A stretch of DNA of 27,152 nt from an uncultured Methanosarcinales archaeon (GTDB lineage Archaea > Nanobdellota > Nanobdellia > Woesearchaeales > CAZOXR01): NCBI GenBank assembly GCA_964566535.1, contig CAZMIO010000003.1:62001-89152 (forward strand), read 5' to 3'. The translations under genes were made by a program, and so were the position numbers. Positions 688-19,485 of this stretch are shown piece by piece. Every line of letters starts with the position of its first letter. The stretch's first letter is position 1. The notes under the pieces are model-generated. The model saw only the letters and a list, made by a program, of their open reading frames with translations. It had not been told where the DNA came from and made no database searches.

Positions 688-1449
688 TCACTTCCCACTA
701 ACATGCCCTTCAACTAAACCAACCAAAGCATTAGAAAAAAACTCACTCTTAACCAAAATCGCAGTATCTTTAGTTTTATCGGTACTATCAGCCAACATAA
801 ACAACGTTTCATTACCATCAAAAACAATAAATCTTGAATTCAAATCAGTCCTAACAACTTTAAGATCATTAACTGGCTCATCAATAGGAGCATAAATATC
901 CAATTTAACCTTCTTCTTCTCTAAACTAGGTAAAAAGTTCTTAAACAATTTCATTTTACTATTAAAATTCTCTTTTGTTGTAGCAACAACAATTGAACTA
1001 GAAGCCCTATCAATACTCTTCTTAATAAATGAATAAATAGCACTCTTACCGTTTAATATGTTTGATAAACTCTCAGAATCAATTTTCTCAATTCCAGTCT
1101 TATGCAATAACTCCAACTCCTTAAAAACACTAGTTGATCTTATACCTTCAAGCATATTCAGGTTAATCTCTTGATCATGCTTAATATCTTTCTTAACTCT
1201 TTCAACAATCTCTTCAGGCTTAACAGCAATATACTTGATTGGCCTTCCAATCTTCATTATAATATATCCCTTCTTCTCTAAACTCTCAAGAACATCATAG
1301 CATCTTGATCTTGGAACACCAGATAGGTCAGCAAGCTCACCAGCAGCTGCAATCCCTTTAGAAAGTAATGAAGCCCAAATCTTTACTTCATAGATATTAA
1401 GCTTAAAATCGCCCTTTAATTTAGTTAAAAATTCTTTTTGTATGATCAT
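688..1449 (-). CDS. TrmB-family transcriptional regulator
   Basis: N-terminal wHTH LNIYEVKIW..LL...AGELADLSGVPRSRCYDVLESLEKKG..GRP.KY.AV.P, followed by a TrmB-type effector-binding (PLD-like) domain. Confidence 0.9.
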   Translation of the reverse strand: MIIQKEFLTKLKGDFKLNIYEVKIWASLLSKGIAAAGELADLSGVPRSRCYDVLESLEKKGYIIMKIGRPIKYIAVKPEEIVERVKKDIKHDQEINLNMLEGIRSTSVFKELELLHKTGIEKIDSESLSNILNGKSAIYSFIKKSIDRASSSIVVATTKENFNSKMKLFKNFLPSLEKKKVKLDIYAPIDEPVNDLKVVRTDLNSRFIVFDGNETLFMLADSTDKTKDTAILVKSEFFSNALVGLVEGHVSGK

Positions 1450-1538: not shown

Positions 1539-3117
1539 TTATTTTTTCTTAACGAAGCTTACTATGATTATAGCACCTACTAAAAGTAATAGGATATCTA
1601 CACCCACAATCAAAGCAATCAGACCAGGTCCTTCAAGCAATCCGCCTATAGAAGCTGTTCCTTCACCGTCGTCTCCACCGTCAGCAGTTGTTGCACCAGT
1701 AAGGTCTATACCGTCACCAGTTAGATCAGTACCTTCATCTCCAGTTCCTTCGTCACCAGTACCTTCATCTCCTGTACCTTCATNNNNNNNNNNNNNNNNN
1801 NNNNNNNNNNNNNNNNNNNNNNNNNNNNNNNNNNNNNNNNNNNNNNNNNNNNNNNNNNNNNNNNNNNNNNNNNNNNNNNNNNNTACCTTCATCTCCAGTT
1901 CCTTCGTCACCAGTACCTTCATCTCCTGTACCTTCATCTCCAGTTCCTTCGTCACCAGTACCTTCATCTCCTGTACCTTCATCGTCTACAGGTGCGTCAA
2001 CAACACATTCTTCAACTGACAATGATACTGTATCACTAGCACTTGTTTTTGCAGATTCAACTTTTACATCAAGTCTGTAGTTACCAGCGTCAGTTCCTTC
2101 TGAAACGAAAAGAGCTACTCTTTTGCTCCATTCAGCATCTGAATCATCTCCTTGGTCAAGTGTTCCTAGTTCGAATTTCTCGTTTATTTCAAGAGCAGTG
2201 TTCTTTATAGTAACAACAACATCGTCTTCTTCCTCTTCTCCGATGTTTAGAGCAGTTACGCTAACTTCTGCATCTCCACTACACTCAACCTCAGTAGGTC
2301 CAAGTGATAGCTTTGTAAAGATTAATTCGTGTGTTTCTTTGTCCCATGCAAAATCAAAGTCAGTTCCAAAATCAAAGTCTAGCTTTTCTTTGCTTTCTTT
2401 GTCTTCAGCCTCTAATTTGATATCTAATGTTACATCATCTTCACTGTCTATCATATAAGGAATTTCGATTTCAATATCTAATTCATCGTCATCCCCAGGT
2501 TCAAGATCACTAAGATCAAACTCTTCATCATAGTCAATATCACTTATCTCTAACGTGAATTTAACGTCTTTAATTTCCCTATTTTCTAAAACATCTTCGC
2601 CGCTTTTGAAAAGGTTTTCAACTTCAATATTAACCTTGATTACAGTTCCAGGTTTTGGATCACTCAATGAATCTCCGGTAATATCTGCTTTTTCATCATC
2701 GCCGTTTATATCAAAGTCAATCTCAGCTTCATCACCAATTCTTAACATGAATGGTTTTCCACCGTATTTATCTCCTCTAACTAAAACGAATATGTTGTCT
2801 TCAACTGGTATAATTCCCATATCAGTTGTAGCAGTCCACTTTTCTCCCTCTAATGACTGGTATACTGTCCAATCTCCAGCAACACCAACATCATCAACAC
2901 TTACAATCTCAGTTTCAGTTACATCTAACTCAACTGTTAATGAACTTTCTTTCAAATAGTCTGTTAAATTTTGTCCTTCAACTACATCACTACAATCTGT
3001 TTCAACTACCAATTCAAAATCACTTTGGTCGTTGGCTATAATACAAAATTCTTCTGTTGCTCCATAAGCTATTGAAGCGAACATAATGCTTAACATCAAT
3101 CCTATTAATATTTTCAT
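1539..3117 (-). CDS. Membrane-anchored S-layer-like surface protein with a degenerate N-terminal DUF4430-like domain, Ig/CARDB-like domains and a DEGTG repeat stalk (spans the N gap)
   Basis: ORFs 1780..3210 and 1539..1982 both read DEGTG repeats on either side of a 100-N gap, so they are one gene. Start taken at ATG 3117 (signal peptide MKILIGLMLSIMFASIAYG, SD GGGGTGG). C-terminal TM helix plus KKK. Paralogous to 3220..4632. Confidence 0.8.
1730..1983 (-). repeat. 15-bp tandem repeat (DEGTG) arranged as a 45-bp higher-order unit; copy number unresolved
   Basis: Plus-strand units accttcatctccagt / tccttcgtcaccagt / accttcatctcctgt recur in fixed order on both sides of the gap. Confidence 0.95.
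1784..1883. other. Assembly gap (100 N)
   Basis: Run of N inside the tandem repeat; the length is probably a placeholder. Confidence 0.98.
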
Positions 3118-3219
3118 TGTTTTTATTTTAACCACCCCGAATGGTTTATTATAGTTTATTATTACCTGTGTAGACAACATCTGGTATTTAAAGTTTTTGC
3201 TATTTTCCAATAGTAACCC

Positions 3220-4632
3220 TCAGCCTTTAAATACTCTCATTATTAGCACAATACCGAGTATTGCCACCAATATATACACAAAAGCATTAATTCCAATCAC
3301 CAATCCTTTGTTGCTAATCCATTTTGATAACTCTCCACCATCTTTAGCAACATTACCAGTAACTCCACTTAGTCCTGAATCATGGTCATGCTCATCAGTC
3401 CCTTCATCATCTGTTAGTCCACTATCAGTTGCATCATCAGTACAGTCCCTAACTCTCAGATTAACAGTTGCATCTTGGCTATATCTGTCAAATCCAGCAT
3501 TAACTAATATGGGGTATATTCCTTCATCTACATCAGAGTCAACATTAATCCTTATAGATGTAGAATATTCACTATCGTCATCAAACGGGTCATCCTCAAG
3601 CTCAAATTCTTTCTTTTCGCTAATCCCTAAATCCTCACTATTAACTTCTAAAACAACCTGTTCTTTTTCTCTTCCCATATTCACTACGTTAATACTAAGA
3701 GAAGTACTTCCAGAACACACAATTTCTTCATCACTTAATTTAACATTTTCAATCCTAACATCATGTTTCTCTTTTTCAACTTCTACTTTATATTTTAGTG
3801 TTTTCTTAAATTCCTTATTGTTTCCGTCCTTCCACTCAATATCTAGAACTAAGTTAAATTCTTTATCTTCAACTTCAATAGGAATCTCAAACTCAACACT
3901 CTGACTTTCATCATCACCAGGCTCTAGATCATCGTAGTCATTATTATTCTCTTCTAGGTCCTCACCATCCTCAATATCCCTTATTGTAGCTGTAATTTCA
4001 ATATCTTCCAAATTTAGGTCATATGCTTCAGCATCATATCTATTCTTTAGCCCAACTTCAAGCTTTAGGCTATCTCCAGGTTTTACATATATAGTATCGC
4101 CTTCACTAAGATCATCACTATCCCCCTCAACCCTAACTTCGATCTCTTCAATGCCTAATGGCTCTGGCTTAACGCCCCATTCACCAAATGCTAATCCAAT
4201 AACATCACCATCTTTAGCACAATAATGTGTAGAACAGGAATCTCCACCATCATAAGCAACCATCATATGGTCCCACTTATCAGTTCCCAATATGTTAAAA
4301 TTCCAAGAGAATTTATCATATTTTTTATTCCATTCACAAGACATTCCTTCTTTCTCAGGTGCATAATCCACATCTTCACCAAGACCATTTATCTTACATA
4401 TTCCATGACCATAATCAGAAGTAATACCGAGAAGAGTCTTCAAGTAATACTCAGACCATGTTATGTCAAGATCCAATTCATTCATTAACTCATACCCATC
4501 TATACCTTCAGGAACATCAACACACTCCGTATCCATATCACCATTCTTATAATCAACAACTACACAAACATTTGCTGCACTAACAGCACTCATCAACATT
4601 AAACCCATTATTATATATACTATTTTTTTCAT
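3220..4632 (-). CDS. Membrane-anchored S-layer-like protein with an N-terminal DUF4430 (transcobalamin C-terminal-like) domain
   Basis: Signal peptide. VCVVVDY..G....ECV....DGYELM...YGHGICKINGLG...WNF...W...KDGDVIGLAFG fits the DUF4430 beta-grasp pattern. Acidic Ig-like domains, then a C-terminal TM helix. Confidence 0.8.
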   Translation of the reverse strand: MKKIVYIIMGLMLMSAVSAANVCVVVDYKNGDMDTECVDVPEGIDGYELMNELDLDITWSEYYLKTLLGITSDYGHGICKINGLGEDVDYAPEKEGMSCEWNKKYDKFSWNFNILGTDKWDHMMVAYDGGDSCSTHYCAKDGDVIGLAFGEWGVKPEPLGIEEIEVRVEGDSDDLSEGDTIYVKPGDSLKLEVGLKNRYDAEAYDLNLEDIEITATIRDIEDGEDLEENNNDYDDLEPGDDESQSVEFEIPIEVEDKEFNLVLDIEWKDGNNKEFKKTLKYKVEVEKEKHDVRIENVKLSDEEIVCSGSTSLSINVVNMGREKEQVVLEVNSEDLGISEKKEFELEDDPFDDDSEYSTSIRINVDSDVDEGIYPILVNAGFDRYSQDATVNLRVRDCTDDATDSGLTDDEGTDEHDHDSGLSGVTGNVAKDGGELSKWISNKGLVIGINAFVYILVAILGIVLIMRVFKG

Positions 4633-4642
4633 TTTTTATACC

Positions 4643-5014
4643 TCATCTTTTCGCAAATCTAAATTCAATCTCATCTCCCCCTTTAACATGATAATTATTT
4701 ACTCCATAAGTTGACATCTTACCATTAACATACATAGGCCACCAATAGCCTGATTCTGCACACACTCCATCAATACACTCAATAGCATTACCGCCCAAAT
4801 GCAACTTAATCTCGTGCTTCACATCCAACACCTGAAAAGCACTAACATCAGGACTTTTCACACTATATTTCTCTTCTGTGCTGTTACCAATAGATACTAT
4901 CGTAAGTTTAACATACTCATTTTGGCTCTTCAGCTGACTTTCCGTCTGGCACCCACTGCTTAAGAGGACCATTCCTAGCACGATCAAGCACATTATCGCA
5001 TATCTCTTTCTCAT
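4643..5014 (-). CDS. DUF4430-domain lipoprotein (putative cobalamin-binding protein)
   Basis: Lipobox LSSGC. SAFQVL...IECIDGV....YWWPMYVNGKMSTYGVNNYHVKGGDEIEFRF is a typical DUF4430 signature. SD GGGAGG. Confidence 0.88.
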   Translation of the reverse strand: MRKRYAIMCLIVLGMVLLSSGCQTESQLKSQNEYVKLTIVSIGNSTEEKYSVKSPDVSAFQVLDVKHEIKLHLGGNAIECIDGVCAESGYWWPMYVNGKMSTYGVNNYHVKGGDEIEFRFAKR

Positions 5015-5633
5015 TAAACCTCCCTACCTTATCTACAAGCTTCTTTCCTAGTGGCAAAAATAATCCGAAAACACTATTGGATATAACATGAGGTATCAAA
5101 AACGGAATTCCAGTAACAAATGCAAGTAAAATATTCCCTCCAACACTGAGGGCAAACCCTATATTAAAGATAGTCTGCAAAATCACCGTAGCAACTAGCA
5201 TAAATCCAACTGTTTCAAACACACTAGCTTTCTTCCGGAGGAATCCTCCTAAAAACCCAGCAATACCATAAGCAATTGCCTGATATATAGTCCATGGACC
5301 TTGTCCACCAAAAACCAAAAAATTTGAAAAATACAATGAACTAATCCCAACCAAAGCCCCTTTCCTCTTTCCAAAAAGCCATCCAGACAGCAAAGCAAAA
5401 AACGTCAATGGTTCAACATTAGGCCAAAACTGCATCCCTACCCTCAAAGCAGAAGCACCACCAACAAACCCGGCCATAACTAACCATTCCTTAAGCTTGA
5501 TTATCTGCAGCTGTTGTAATAATGATCTTAGAGCAAGCCTTTGAGAAGCTTTTGATTTCGTTTCAACTACAACAACCTCTTTTTCTTTCTGTTCTTCTGT
5601 TTCTTTTTCCTTAAGTTTTGTTTCTTGGCTCAT
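4917..5633 (-). CDS. ECF transporter S-component, CbrT-like (cobalamin)
   Basis: About 6 TM segments. LR....PNVEP.......G..FG...G.......SNF....QGPWT.YQ..AYG..G and HVISN motifs. Start taken at ATG 5633 rather than TTG 5642. Context: riboswitch upstream and DUF4430 genes downstream. Confidence 0.88.
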   Translation of the reverse strand: MSQETKLKEKETEEQKEKEVVVVETKSKASQRLALRSLLQQLQIIKLKEWLVMAGFVGGASALRVGMQFWPNVEPLTFFALLSGWLFGKRKGALVGISSLYFSNFLVFGGQGPWTIYQAIAYGIAGFLGGFLRKKASVFETVGFMLVATVILQTIFNIGFALSVGGNILLAFVTGIPFLIPHVISNSVFGLFLPLGKKLVDKVGRFNEKEICDNVLDRARNGPLKQWVPDGKSAEEPK

Positions 5634-5662
5634 ATAACTCAACCTTAATAATAAATTTCAGA

Positions 5663-5774
5663 GAAGTCTTGTTGACAACTCCACGATCACTTTACACTAG
5701 ATAAGTATTCCGGCTTTACGGCTGCGGGTCAGCGACGGATTTGCACCATCCTTTCCTTAACTAATAGAACTAGT
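5663..5774 (-). promoter_or_regulatory. Cobalamin riboswitch, compact form lacking the P6 extension (aptamer about 5696-5774)
   Basis: Minus strand reads ACUAG..AGU UAAGGAAAG GAUGG-UGCAAAU-CCGUC GC-UGACCC-GC AG CCG-UAAAGC-CGG AAU ACU..CUAGU. This gives J3/4, P4 with T-loop, P5 with CCC loop, a short P6 and the B12 box. Candidate P13 at 5673-5689. Confidence 0.85.
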
Positions 5775-5784
5775 ATTCATTATG

Positions 5785-12325: not shown

Positions 12326-12383
12326 CGTTGGGATTTTACCCTCAACGCAATTCCTCCCCCATTCATTTGGGGGACGGAATTTG
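12326..12383 (+). ncRNA. Two-hairpin structured leader of unknown family
   Basis: CGTTG-GG...CC-T-CAACG and AATTCC-TCCCCCA...TGGGGGA-C-GGAATT: GC-rich stems in an AT-rich background, starting at the expected TSS. Confidence 0.5.
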
Positions 12384-12399
12384 TTATATTAATAAAAAA

Positions 12400-14064
12400 A
12401 TGGAAATAACCGAAATATTCACAAAGAAGAACATAGAAATCCTAGAACTCCTAAAAAAAGGAGGACTTCACCTTAGAGATATTGCTGCTCAGTTAAAATG
12501 TTCGCCAGCAAAAGTCCACGACACAATAAAGCTATTCGTAAAAAACGACCTAATAAGAATTACTGAAGTAAAGAACAGAAAAATAATCACATTAAACAAA
12601 AAAAGCCAGCTCCTAAAAGAAATCCAAAACATTACCTCGACAGAAAAACAACCAGAAAAGCAAGAAACAGAAAACACTATCTCAATCTACGACTCAATTT
12701 CACCAATAGACTTCAGATACTACGGAAGAAATCCTGAATTAATCAAGAAACTTTCCCCTTACCTATCAGAAGAAGGATTCACAAAATACTTAGCAAAAGT
12801 AGAAGCAGCATTAACAAGAACACTAGCAAAAAAAGGAGTCTGCTCAAAAGAAATAGCAGACGAAGTTGAAAATGCAACAAAACAAGTAACAGCAGACGAA
12901 GTGTACAAAGAAGAAGACAGAATCAAACATAACATAAGAGCATTAGCAAACTCAATAAGAAAAAAAGTCTCTGACAAAGCAAAACCCTACGTTCACTTTA
13001 CAACAACTTCCCACGATATAATCTGCACCGCAGACTCTTTAAGATACAAAGATTTCACAAACAATGTATTATTACAATCATTACTAAATTTAGAAAATAC
13101 TTTAATAAATTTAGCCCTAAGAGAAAAAGCAACTCTCCAGATAGGCAGAACTCATGGACAGCATGCAGAACCAATTACATTCGGCTTTACAATAGCAAAT
13201 TACATTTCAAGATTAGGCTCAAGAATACAAAAAATAAAGTCCGGAGCAAACAATTTAAGAGGAAAGATAGCAGGAGCAGTTGGAGCTTACAATGCATCTT
13301 CATTATTCTTCAAAAACCCAGTAGAATTCGAAAGACAAGTTTTAGCAGAACTTGACCTAAAACCATCTCCAATATCAACTCAGGTAATAGAGGCAGAATT
13401 CATGACAGATTATATTCACGCAATAACTTCATGTTTCGGAGTATTAGCAAACATTGCAGATGACATGAGACAATTACAAAGATCAGAGATAGCAGAAGTT
13501 GGAGAACACTTCGAAGAAAAACAAGTTGGCTCCTCCACTATGCCTCAAAAGCGAAACCCGATTAATTTTGAAAACATTAAATCAATGTGGAAAGAGTTCA
13601 TGCCAAGAATACAAACTCTGTACATGGACCAAATCTCTGAACACCAAAGGGACCTAACAAACTCAGCCTCCTCAAGATTCATACCAGAACTTTTAGCAGC
13701 TTTATACATATCAATAGAGCGTCTAAACAAAGTAATGTCAAAGTTAGTTGTAGACAAAACTAATCTAGACAAAAACTTCGACCAAAACAAAGAGATGATT
13801 GCAGCAGAACCTATTTACATCTTACTTGCAGCACAAAACCATCCAGATGCACACGAAGCTGTAAGGGAACTTACAATAAAATCGCAAAAAGAAAAAGTTC
13901 CTTTATCTAAATTGTTAAGAGAATCAAAAGAACTAAAGCCGTATCTTGCAAAACTATCGATAAAACAAAAAGAGATGCTTGCAAACCCTGAAAAATATAC
14001 TGGCATCTCAATCCAGAAAACTGAAGCTGTTTGTAAGTTTTGGAAAAAAGAATTGAAGATTTAG
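12400..14064 (+). CDS. purB: Adenylosuccinate lyase with an N-terminal winged-HTH fusion
   Basis: ISPIDFRY, GRTHGQHAEP.TFG, GAVG.Y and the signature GSSTMPQKRNP. The first ~90 aa form an ArsR-like wHTH (LHLRDIAAQLKCSPAKVHDTIKLF). Start taken at ATG 12400. Confidence 0.95.
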   Translation: MEITEIFTKKNIEILELLKKGGLHLRDIAAQLKCSPAKVHDTIKLFVKNDLIRITEVKNRKIITLNKKSQLLKEIQNITSTEKQPEKQETENTISIYDSISPIDFRYYGRNPELIKKLSPYLSEEGFTKYLAKVEAALTRTLAKKGVCSKEIADEVENATKQVTADEVYKEEDRIKHNIRALANSIRKKVSDKAKPYVHFTTTSHDIICTADSLRYKDFTNNVLLQSLLNLENTLINLALREKATLQIGRTHGQHAEPITFGFTIANYISRLGSRIQKIKSGANNLRGKIAGAVGAYNASSLFFKNPVEFERQVLAELDLKPSPISTQVIEAEFMTDYIHAITSCFGVLANIADDMRQLQRSEIAEVGEHFEEKQVGSSTMPQKRNPINFENIKSMWKEFMPRIQTLYMDQISEHQRDLTNSASSRFIPELLAALYISIERLNKVMSKLVVDKTNLDKNFDQNKEMIAAEPIYILLAAQNHPDAHEAVRELTIKSQKEKVPLSKLLRESKELKPYLAKLSIKQKEMLANPEKYTGISIQKTEAVCKFWKKELKI

Positions 14065-19389: not shown

Positions 19390-19485
19390 GGGCCGGTAGC
19401 TCAGCCTGGAAATCAAAACAGATTGGGGCAATAGAGCACTGCACTTTTAATGCAGTGGTCGCGAGTTCGAATCTCGTCCGGCCCA
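19390..19485 (+). tRNA. tRNA-Lys(TTT) with a D-loop intron (about 19410-19431)
   Basis: Acceptor GGGCCGG/CCGGCCC, anticodon arm CTGCA-CTTTTAA-TGCAG, T arm GCGAG-TTCGAAT-CTCGT. Removing 22 nt restores GCTCAGCCTGGTAGAGC. Confidence 0.95.

Follow-up and report, generated by a model that had tools for sequence, protein, structure and literature searches.

A predicted cobamide-scavenging operon with a stalked transcobalamin-like receptor behind a cobalamin riboswitch in a Woesearchaeales archaeon

Do the four genes that follow a cobalamin riboswitch in a small archaeal genome serve to catch cobamides at the cell surface, and if so, which of them? The genes lie in a 27,152-nucleotide (nt) stretch of DNA (the window, C3:62001-89152; contig CAZMIO010000003.1 of assembly GCA_964566535.1) from an uncultured Methanosarcinales archaeon, assigned to Woesearchaeales in GTDB, whose genome of 1.45 Mb is 91% complete. 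The original prediction, made from the letters of the window, had proposed a surface-displayed B12-scavenging system composed of an S-component, a DUF4430 lipoprotein and two stalked paralogues. Four co-oriented genes are indeed present on the minus strand behind the riboswitch (genes 1 to 4, Table 1). In our interpretation, which we hold with good though not full confidence, genes 1 to 3 are an operon for scavenging cobamides that B12 represses: the stalked head encoded by gene 3 would catch cobamides and the S-component encoded by gene 1 would carry them in. Surface capture feeding an S-component, as originally proposed, is supported by the riboswitch, by the modelled fold of the gene 3 head, by synteny and by the co-occurrence of B12 enzymes.

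Table 1. Features of the cluster and its surroundings. Positions refer to the window unless residues or another locus are named (aa, amino acids; Ig, immunoglobulin; TM, transmembrane; ORF, open reading frame; BRE, B recognition element; pLDDT, predicted local distance difference test).
Feature	Position	Strand	Basis or description
Class-II cobalamin riboswitch aptamer (Rfam AdoCbl-II, RF01689)	5695..5775	-	39.8 bits, gathering cut-off 36.5; full length
Conserved post-aptamer segment (GATCGTGGAG... hairpin)	5655..5694	-	kept in 5/5 aligned leaders; hairpin fold in window
Gene 1, S-component-like membrane protein, 238 aa (DUF6580; CbrT/FolT-like)	4917..5633	-	DUF6580 42.1 bits
Gene 2, small DUF4430 (transcobalamin-beta-like) lipoprotein, 123 aa	4643..5014	-	DUF4430 43.4 bits, E 4.9e-11
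Gene 3, stalked receptor, 470 aa	3220..4632	-	AlphaFold2 pLDDT 87; head fold match; stalk NF033506 match below cut-off
Gene 3 layout	head ~aa 19-152; two Ig-like domains ~aa 157-398		signal peptide, head, two Ig-like domains, acidic linker, C-terminal TM anchor
Predicted separate gene 4 promoter	3185..3216	-	palindrome TTACTATT-N4-AATAGCAA, then A-rich BRE-like stretch, TTTAAATA
Gene 4, second stalked surface protein, 459-474 aa	1539..3117	-	degenerate ~100-aa head, two-Ig stalk, EGTGD repeat linker, TM anchor
TrmB-family regulator after gene 4	688..1449	-	TrmB 62.3 bits
Giant leader ORFs of relatives	L060:191-3145, L069:1635-5480, L055:2548-5628, L054:3-1688, L061:2875-6030, L097:1610-5449		

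The aptamer is the sole AdoCbl-II copy in the genome. The third pair of its P4 stem covaries, reading AT, GC, TA or TG across 14 of 15 sequences; the fifteenth was aligned one base out of register, and the outer pairs of P3 were left unresolved by this analysis. A sequence-only model built from five leaders detected homologues in 12 of the 151 genomes searched with it; all 14 positions found also scored on RF01689, 10 of them above the cut-off, and most of them precede an S-component/head operon. Judging from its conservation in the aligned leaders, the segment after the aptamer is likely the read-out half of the riboswitch.

Gene 1 encodes the predicted S-component. Its first 207 residues were scanned, and the DUF6580 match lies above the cut-off of 27 bits; two S-component families of energy-coupling factor (ECF) transporters were matched weakly. 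A profile of the gene 1 family (25 sequences) matched 5d0y, which we take to be a folate-type S-component (E 3.9e-4), and CbrT (6fnp, E 0.0084). The family shares the motifs P-x-V-[EQ]-P, G-x-W-T and H-x-x-x-N with the matched S-components, and it has no invariant cysteine. In the order-wide searches, which covered 301 genomes, DUF6580 was present in 37 (two of them flagged as unpublished).

The DUF4430 lipoprotein of the original prediction was also recovered. Gene 2 scores well above the Pfam cut-off of 23.8 bits and encodes a lipobox-like SSGC sequence, and the profile of its family matches haptocorrin (4kki, E 6.1e-6). A lipobox-type cysteine occurs in just 11 of 26 relatives. DUF4430 was detected in 35 of the 301 genomes (four flagged as unpublished). 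We take CbrS, encoded in the cbrT cluster of Lactobacillus delbrueckii, to be a DUF4430 lipoprotein as well. Genes 1 and 2 overlap by 98 nt and genes 2 and 3 are separated by 10 nt; the close spacing claimed for the whole cluster thus holds for genes 1 to 3, and not for genes 3 and 4, which are 102 nt apart.

Neither the gene 3 sequence nor the profile of its head retrieved anything useful from the PDB, and the head alone gave no Pfam DUF4430 match. Within the head family 8 of 17 members matched DUF4430 at E values up to 0.1 (best 8.2e-6), and the family aligned with profiles of the small DUF4430 proteins at a probability of 92.5%. In the AlphaFold2 model, calculated from a 20-sequence alignment, the head (model residues 1-134) superimposes on bovine transcobalamin (2bb6) with a Z-score of 11.7 and a deviation of 1.8 Å over 94 residues. 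Intrinsic factor (2pmv, Z 11.2), the isolated human beta domain (5no0, 11.1), haptocorrin (4kkj, 10.9) and a Ruminococcus protein (3u7z, 10.8) were also matched. A helix (residues 28-33) precedes the strands of the hairpin insert (39-47 and 53-63), making up a predicted beta-grasp with beta-hairpin, and the tryptophan invariant in the family is kept. Model residues 139-269 and 270-380 matched Ig-like folds, and the Foldseek matches of gene 3 were filled by such folds. We consider the transcobalamin beta fold of the gene 3 head established, as a prediction resting on the family profile and the model. In six related proteins (P0013, P0014, P0108, P0109, P0152 and P0159) the head is repeated in tandem, with three or four copies.

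The head family was found in 45 of the 301 genomes (a few matches were marginal, and three genomes, G132, G207 and G209, are flagged as unpublished). For the synteny survey 67 S-component loci were collected with 3-kb flanks, which were complete in 47. By label the 67 loci belong to Woesearchaeota (24), Nanoarchaeota/Nanoarchaeia/Nanobdellati (17), Pacearchaeota (3), unspecified archaeon (5) and uncultured Methanosarcinales (18, a depositor's label); going by these labels, we provisionally describe the lineage as Woesearchaeota-type. A head gene lies within 3 kb of the S-component gene in 54 of the 67 loci, and a small DUF4430 gene in 40, in agreement with the proposed linkage. Among the 47 loci with full flanks the head gene occurs in 40, the small gene in 27 and neither in two; 18 have the head without the small gene, and five the small gene without the head. 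The lipoprotein is therefore dispensable to the system, and an obligatory relay through it is not supported. A library-wide search returned 64 head-plus-stalk rows among its best 150 clusters, a count that includes six added proteins. In one genome (G042, L089:4995-7046) S-component, head and stalk are encoded in one 684-aa frame, which may be an assembly error because it was seen in a single sequence.

What would the cobamide be used for? CobS, CbiC and Peripla_BP_2 (BtuF-type) were not found in the 91%-complete genome, and neither were methionine synthase (homocysteine methyltransferase), class II ribonucleotide reductase, BtuR or PduO. Class II ribonucleotide reductase, named earlier as a possible client, is not supported: the only reductase found is a class I enzyme with an alpha subunit (1176 bits, cut-off 965) and an adjacent beta subunit (330 bits, cut-off 309); its NrdJ_Z match reached just 399-401 bits at a cut-off of 399.95. 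Because these other clients were not found, the B12 need of the source genome rests on radical S-adenosylmethionine (radical-SAM) enzymes: six proteins of 450-535 aa with a B12-binding domain and a CxxxCxxC motif, encoded on contigs C2, C5 and C12. Five of the six genes lie among what we take, from sequence, to be glycosyltransferase and sugar-nucleotide genes. Four of them belong to a surface-glycan cluster (G000:C12:4500-26400), which is possibly a cobalamin-dependent glycan methylation pathway. The class I reductase genes (L001:73-4312) stand behind a regulator gene that appears from its sequence to be Fur/PerR-like, an unusual arrangement for an archaeon.

Demand for B12 was also compared between 39 other genomes with the head (carriers; the set leaves out G000, three unpublished genomes and two marginal matches) and 39 genomes without a head, DUF4430 or DUF6580 match, picked in handle order. 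Homocysteine-methyltransferase and B12-binding domains in one frame occur in 13 of the carriers as against one non-carrier (Fisher p 0.0006); the methyltransferase domain by itself was seen in a further two carriers and one non-carrier. The median number of B12-binding domains per genome is 5 in carriers and 1 in non-carriers, a difference that persists per megabase (p about 0.001). Both p-values overstate the significance, because the genomes include kin (10 families) and are not independent.

In the mechanism that we favour, low B12 would turn the operon on through the riboswitch. The stalked head would then bind a corrinoid at the outer surface with no need of an alpha domain, an ability that the human beta domain has in isolation, and the cobamide would pass to the S-component either directly or via an optional, membrane-proximal second binder, the DUF4430 lipoprotein. 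No alpha/alpha toroid partner was found in the operon; a genome-wide search for the toroid gave no match in controls either. Crystals show cobalamin and cobinamide bound to the isolated beta domain, whose affinity is below that of the whole protein (PMC5599065). The S-component would mostly work without the ECF ATPase module, like BtuM, a solitary S-component able to import B12 (PMC6072759). EcfT was detected in five of the 39 carriers and three of the 39 non-carriers, 34 carriers showing none. The source genome has ecfA and ecfT beside bioY, and could lend the S-component the ECF module of its biotin transporter. The clients would be the six radical-SAM enzymes, most of them in surface-glycan clusters, and in many relatives methionine synthase.

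Several observations weigh against this interpretation. The gene 1 profile scores 5d0y above CbrT, and both matches are weak. Solitary CbrT of Lactobacillus did not support growth without an ECF module (PMC5997447), and EcfT is present in just five of the 39 carriers, though the Lactobacillus protein requires it. Separating the domains of transcobalamin lowers affinity (PMC5599065), and a similar gene set in Lactobacillus sakei has been reported to take up heme (10.1101/864751). The riboswitch lies within 3 kb in just 11 of the 67 S-component loci. Finally, cobalamin use by the radical-SAM enzymes is assumed from the Pfam domain, other clients not having been found; three of the 39 carriers show no B12-binding domain at all, and 28 of the 39 non-carriers have such domains without this system.

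A more far-reaching version can be offered only tentatively, and its parts are judged together. It holds that the operon encodes an ATP-independent B12 antenna, made of a lone beta domain on an S-layer-type anchor and a solitary S-component; that cobamides might be stripped from a host or neighbour at its outer face; that a bacterial-type cobalamin riboswitch might work in an archaeon, with an alternative DNA-binding regulator elsewhere; and that the gene 4 head might have been turned to the capture of a new ligand, with TrmB as the regulator.

A candidate for such a regulator adjoins the operon, mostly in divergent orientation, in 23 of the 67 loci (L044:4478-5050 and 22 others). It is a regulator-like gene of about 190 aa, which does not occur together with the riboswitch in any of the 67 loci within the 3-kb flanks; possibly its product is a protein substitute for the riboswitch. 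It was not found in the source genome.

In its full version the original prediction would make all four genes one riboswitch-controlled unit with two cobamide-binding heads, perhaps for different cobamides, and with the lipoprotein as an obligatory relay. We consider this unlikely. The head of gene 4 does keep a likeness to the family: its score against the head-family profile was 32.1, whereas the maximum of 150 column shuffles was 18.4, and the alignment retains the C-x-x-V-x-E-G start, the helix and the tryptophan. Alignment by hhalign gave probabilities of 55-73% depending on the profile. Among the 4355 ORFs of the genome this head ranks second or third (E about 0.38-1.2), which is not significant alone, and it has no Pfam DUF4430 match. 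The AlphaFold2 model of the head, for which two sequences covered this region, had a pLDDT of about 30 and is uninformative; the fold search with the gene 4 model returned stalk matches only, and the ESM Atlas gave only hits under 0.8. The fold comparison with transcobalamin suggested earlier thus bore out the gene 3 head alone, and of the three DUF4430 proteins predicted, gene 2 was confirmed by Pfam and gene 3 by profile and model, gene 4 being weakly similar only.

Against binding by both heads, the gene 4 head lacks the hairpin-tip G-x-x-L and the later G-x-x-x-Y motifs, which we take to be B12 contacts. The hairpin insert takes part in binding (PMC1796856). One homologue was found outside the cluster of this head; its 62% identity shows that the head is still conserved and speaks for the four-gene unit. 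When the two genomes with this head were searched by profile, no further copy emerged, and its absence from relatives other than this one close homologue weighs against binding by both heads. The omission of the lipoprotein in so many loci, as described above, also argues against a unit with an obligatory relay.

Co-transcription of all four genes, which had been assumed, is called into question by the spacer between genes 3 and 4. It contains a conserved archaeal promoter-like site (Table 1); a sigma-70 promoter scan is not suited to archaea. The same arrangement of palindrome, A-run and TATA box stands before a headless stalk gene in all seven relatives examined, the gene being located directly after the head-stalk gene in six and further downstream in one (L043). 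When the genome was scored with a matrix derived solely from the relatives, no site ranked above the gene 4 promoter. Nothing resembling a terminator was found in the spacer, and read-through into gene 4 is for this reason possible, which favours a common unit. Five sites in the genome score at least 15, no more than in the shuffled control (3 per 400 kb), and we therefore claim no regulon for the palindrome. In several relatives (L043, L053, L060, L061, L069 and L071) the cluster is likewise followed by a gene for a protein similar to the TrmB-family regulator, and we infer that this regulator is a candidate binder of the gene 4 palindrome. Gene 4 likely encodes a surface protein, transcribed on its own, that gained a copy of the head, since decayed, and this head probably no longer binds B12.

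The scaffold gap of 100 N inside gene 4 (1784-1883) does not make it a broken gene. The gap, which falls within the EGTGD repeat, is an assembly artefact: in other assemblies the gene is one unbroken frame of 459 or 474 aa with the same start and 3 or 6 EGTGD copies. The variation of this pentapeptide repeat (window 1784-1915 and 1735-1783) between assemblies may reflect strain variation or assembly collapse.

It is improbable that B12 is handled only by the S-component, with or without the lipoprotein, and that the stalked protein is a bystander in the operon, with a structural or adhesive role at the surface. This alternative draws on the nature of the stalk. As predicted, genes 3 and 4 encode acidic paralogues: both proteins begin with a hydrophobic segment, consist of Asp and Glu to 24-26% and have a TM segment at the C-terminus, and their stalks are 32% identical over 286 columns; the heads do not align by BLAST. 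The stalks match NF033506 (PACE-CTERM-PROT, 'putative S-layer protein') with 49.9 and 49.7 bits, below the cut-off of 110, over model positions of about 225-454 (E 2e-13). The stalk module is present in 38 of the 39 non-carrier genomes and in giant surface proteins of the source genome; it is the generic surface anchor of the order and is not B12-specific. Large, acidic surface proteins of 703, 1464, 491 and 2159 aa are encoded together at G000:C6:30632-46465 (L004), and those of 703 and 2159 aa end in the same stalk. The two-Ig plus TM module may serve for sorting or anchoring throughout the lineage. A bystander role would also suit the extra Cys-rich loops of the gene 3 head, where model confidence is lower, and the 10 of 37 tabulated head-stalk genes that have no S-component in the fetched locus, four of them at contig edges. 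However, the head keeps the full beta-grasp fold, the hairpin and the invariant tryptophan, it tracks the S-component better than the lipoprotein does (40 against 27 of 47 loci), and an S-component-head-stalk fusion exists.

Least probable of all is that the captured ligand is not a cobamide but, in line with the proposal for L. sakei lsa1836-1840, heme or else a different tetrapyrrole or a metal chelate: an ECF operon whose products include alpha- and beta-like transcobalamin proteins has been assigned to heme uptake (10.1101/864751), PMC1796856 warns that archaeal members may scavenge a different metabolite and the match of the S-component to CbrT is weak, but a cobalamin-class riboswitch precedes the operon here and in 11 other loci, carriers are enriched in B12 enzymes, and the published caution concerned B12-making archaea, whereas CobS and CbiC were not found here.

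Other features were noted in the relatives and in the window. One riboswitch copy (L087; G074:C70, about 469630) stands ahead of a gene that, from its sequence, we take to encode a BtuR/CobO-like cob(I)alamin adenosyltransferase, and two further copies precede genes unrelated to the operon. Six relatives have an ORF of 1000-1300 aa (one truncated) directly before the S-component gene and/or after the riboswitch. No Pfam or NCBIfam match was obtained with the five that were scanned; some contain Cys/His repeats (C-x-G-x-R-Y-x-E-F-H), and their ends are weakly DUF4430-like, at a probability of only 50%. Such an ORF was not found in the source genome. Proteins that combine a full alpha-toroid with DUF4430 are also encoded in some relatives (L048:2531-4462, L050:2-1885 and L043:4896-11884), and the same group has PKD/cohesin/beta-propeller DUF4430 clusters of Methanosarcina/Clostridia type. 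The window further encodes DNA gyrase B and an adenylosuccinate lyase fused N-terminally to an HVO_A0114-like helix-turn-helix (12328-14064). A tRNA-like match of 61 nt (19425-19485, 34.1 bits), whose D-arm is very short, lies just before its split RNA polymerase B genes.

The system provides small, soluble proteins for asking whether prokaryotic transcobalamin-like domains, predicted in 2007, bind B12. It bears on whether a beta domain alone suffices for B12 capture, whether a CbrT-like S-component imports B12 without an ATPase module and whether cobalamin riboswitches work in archaea. It also hints at uses of B12 in reduced archaea, namely methionine synthase in about one third of the carriers and radical-SAM surface-glycan enzymes here, and points to a specific cofactor dependence of such archaea on their neighbours.

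How does the operon compare with known systems? NF033506 has in common with the stalk only the anchor-proximal module (score 50, cut-off 110). BtuM of Thiobacillus denitrificans uses an S-component fold for B12 without an ECF module, a likeness of role to what gene 1 would do (PMC6072759); in contrast to BtuM, the gene 1 family has no invariant Cys and is accompanied by extracellular beta-domain binders. The nrdJ-cbrS-cbrT-pduO cluster of L. delbrueckii (PMC5997447) shares the S-component motifs and a small neighbouring gene. However, CbrT needs EcfAA'T, whereas 34 of the 39 carriers show no EcfT, and NrdJ and PduO were not found in the source genome, which has the stalked receptor in addition. 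L. sakei lsa1836-1840 (10.1101/864751) likewise combines an S-component with a secreted transcobalamin-beta-like protein, but EcfT, an ATPase and an alpha-like partner belong to that system itself, its reported ligand is heme, and it is not reported to have a stalk.

The closest precedent is the prediction by Burroughs et al. 2007 (PMC1796856) of secreted transcobalamin-like SLBB domains, some fused to Ig folds, as B12 scavengers. In both cases a beta-grasp domain with a hairpin insert is fused to Ig folds (there in Archaeoglobus and Moorella), operons contain a second paralogue, and B12 synthesis is lacking there and was not detected here. Since Ig-fused scavengers with a second paralogue were thus predicted, the class of architecture, of which the original prediction knew no described example, is already in print. 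The literature searched, with supplements and subscription journals outside its scope, contained no description of the archaeal operon, of DUF6580 or of a Woesearchaeota cobalamin riboswitch. Unlike the systems of 2007, the operon has an S-component in place of an alpha/alpha toroid and CbiO/CbiQ genes, and it combines a riboswitch in an archaeon with a lineage-wide two-Ig plus TM anchor. What is new is the Woesearchaeota-type version, with a riboswitch, without an alpha domain in the operon and mostly without an ATPase module; the system is a real, conserved and undescribed variant of the predicted kind.

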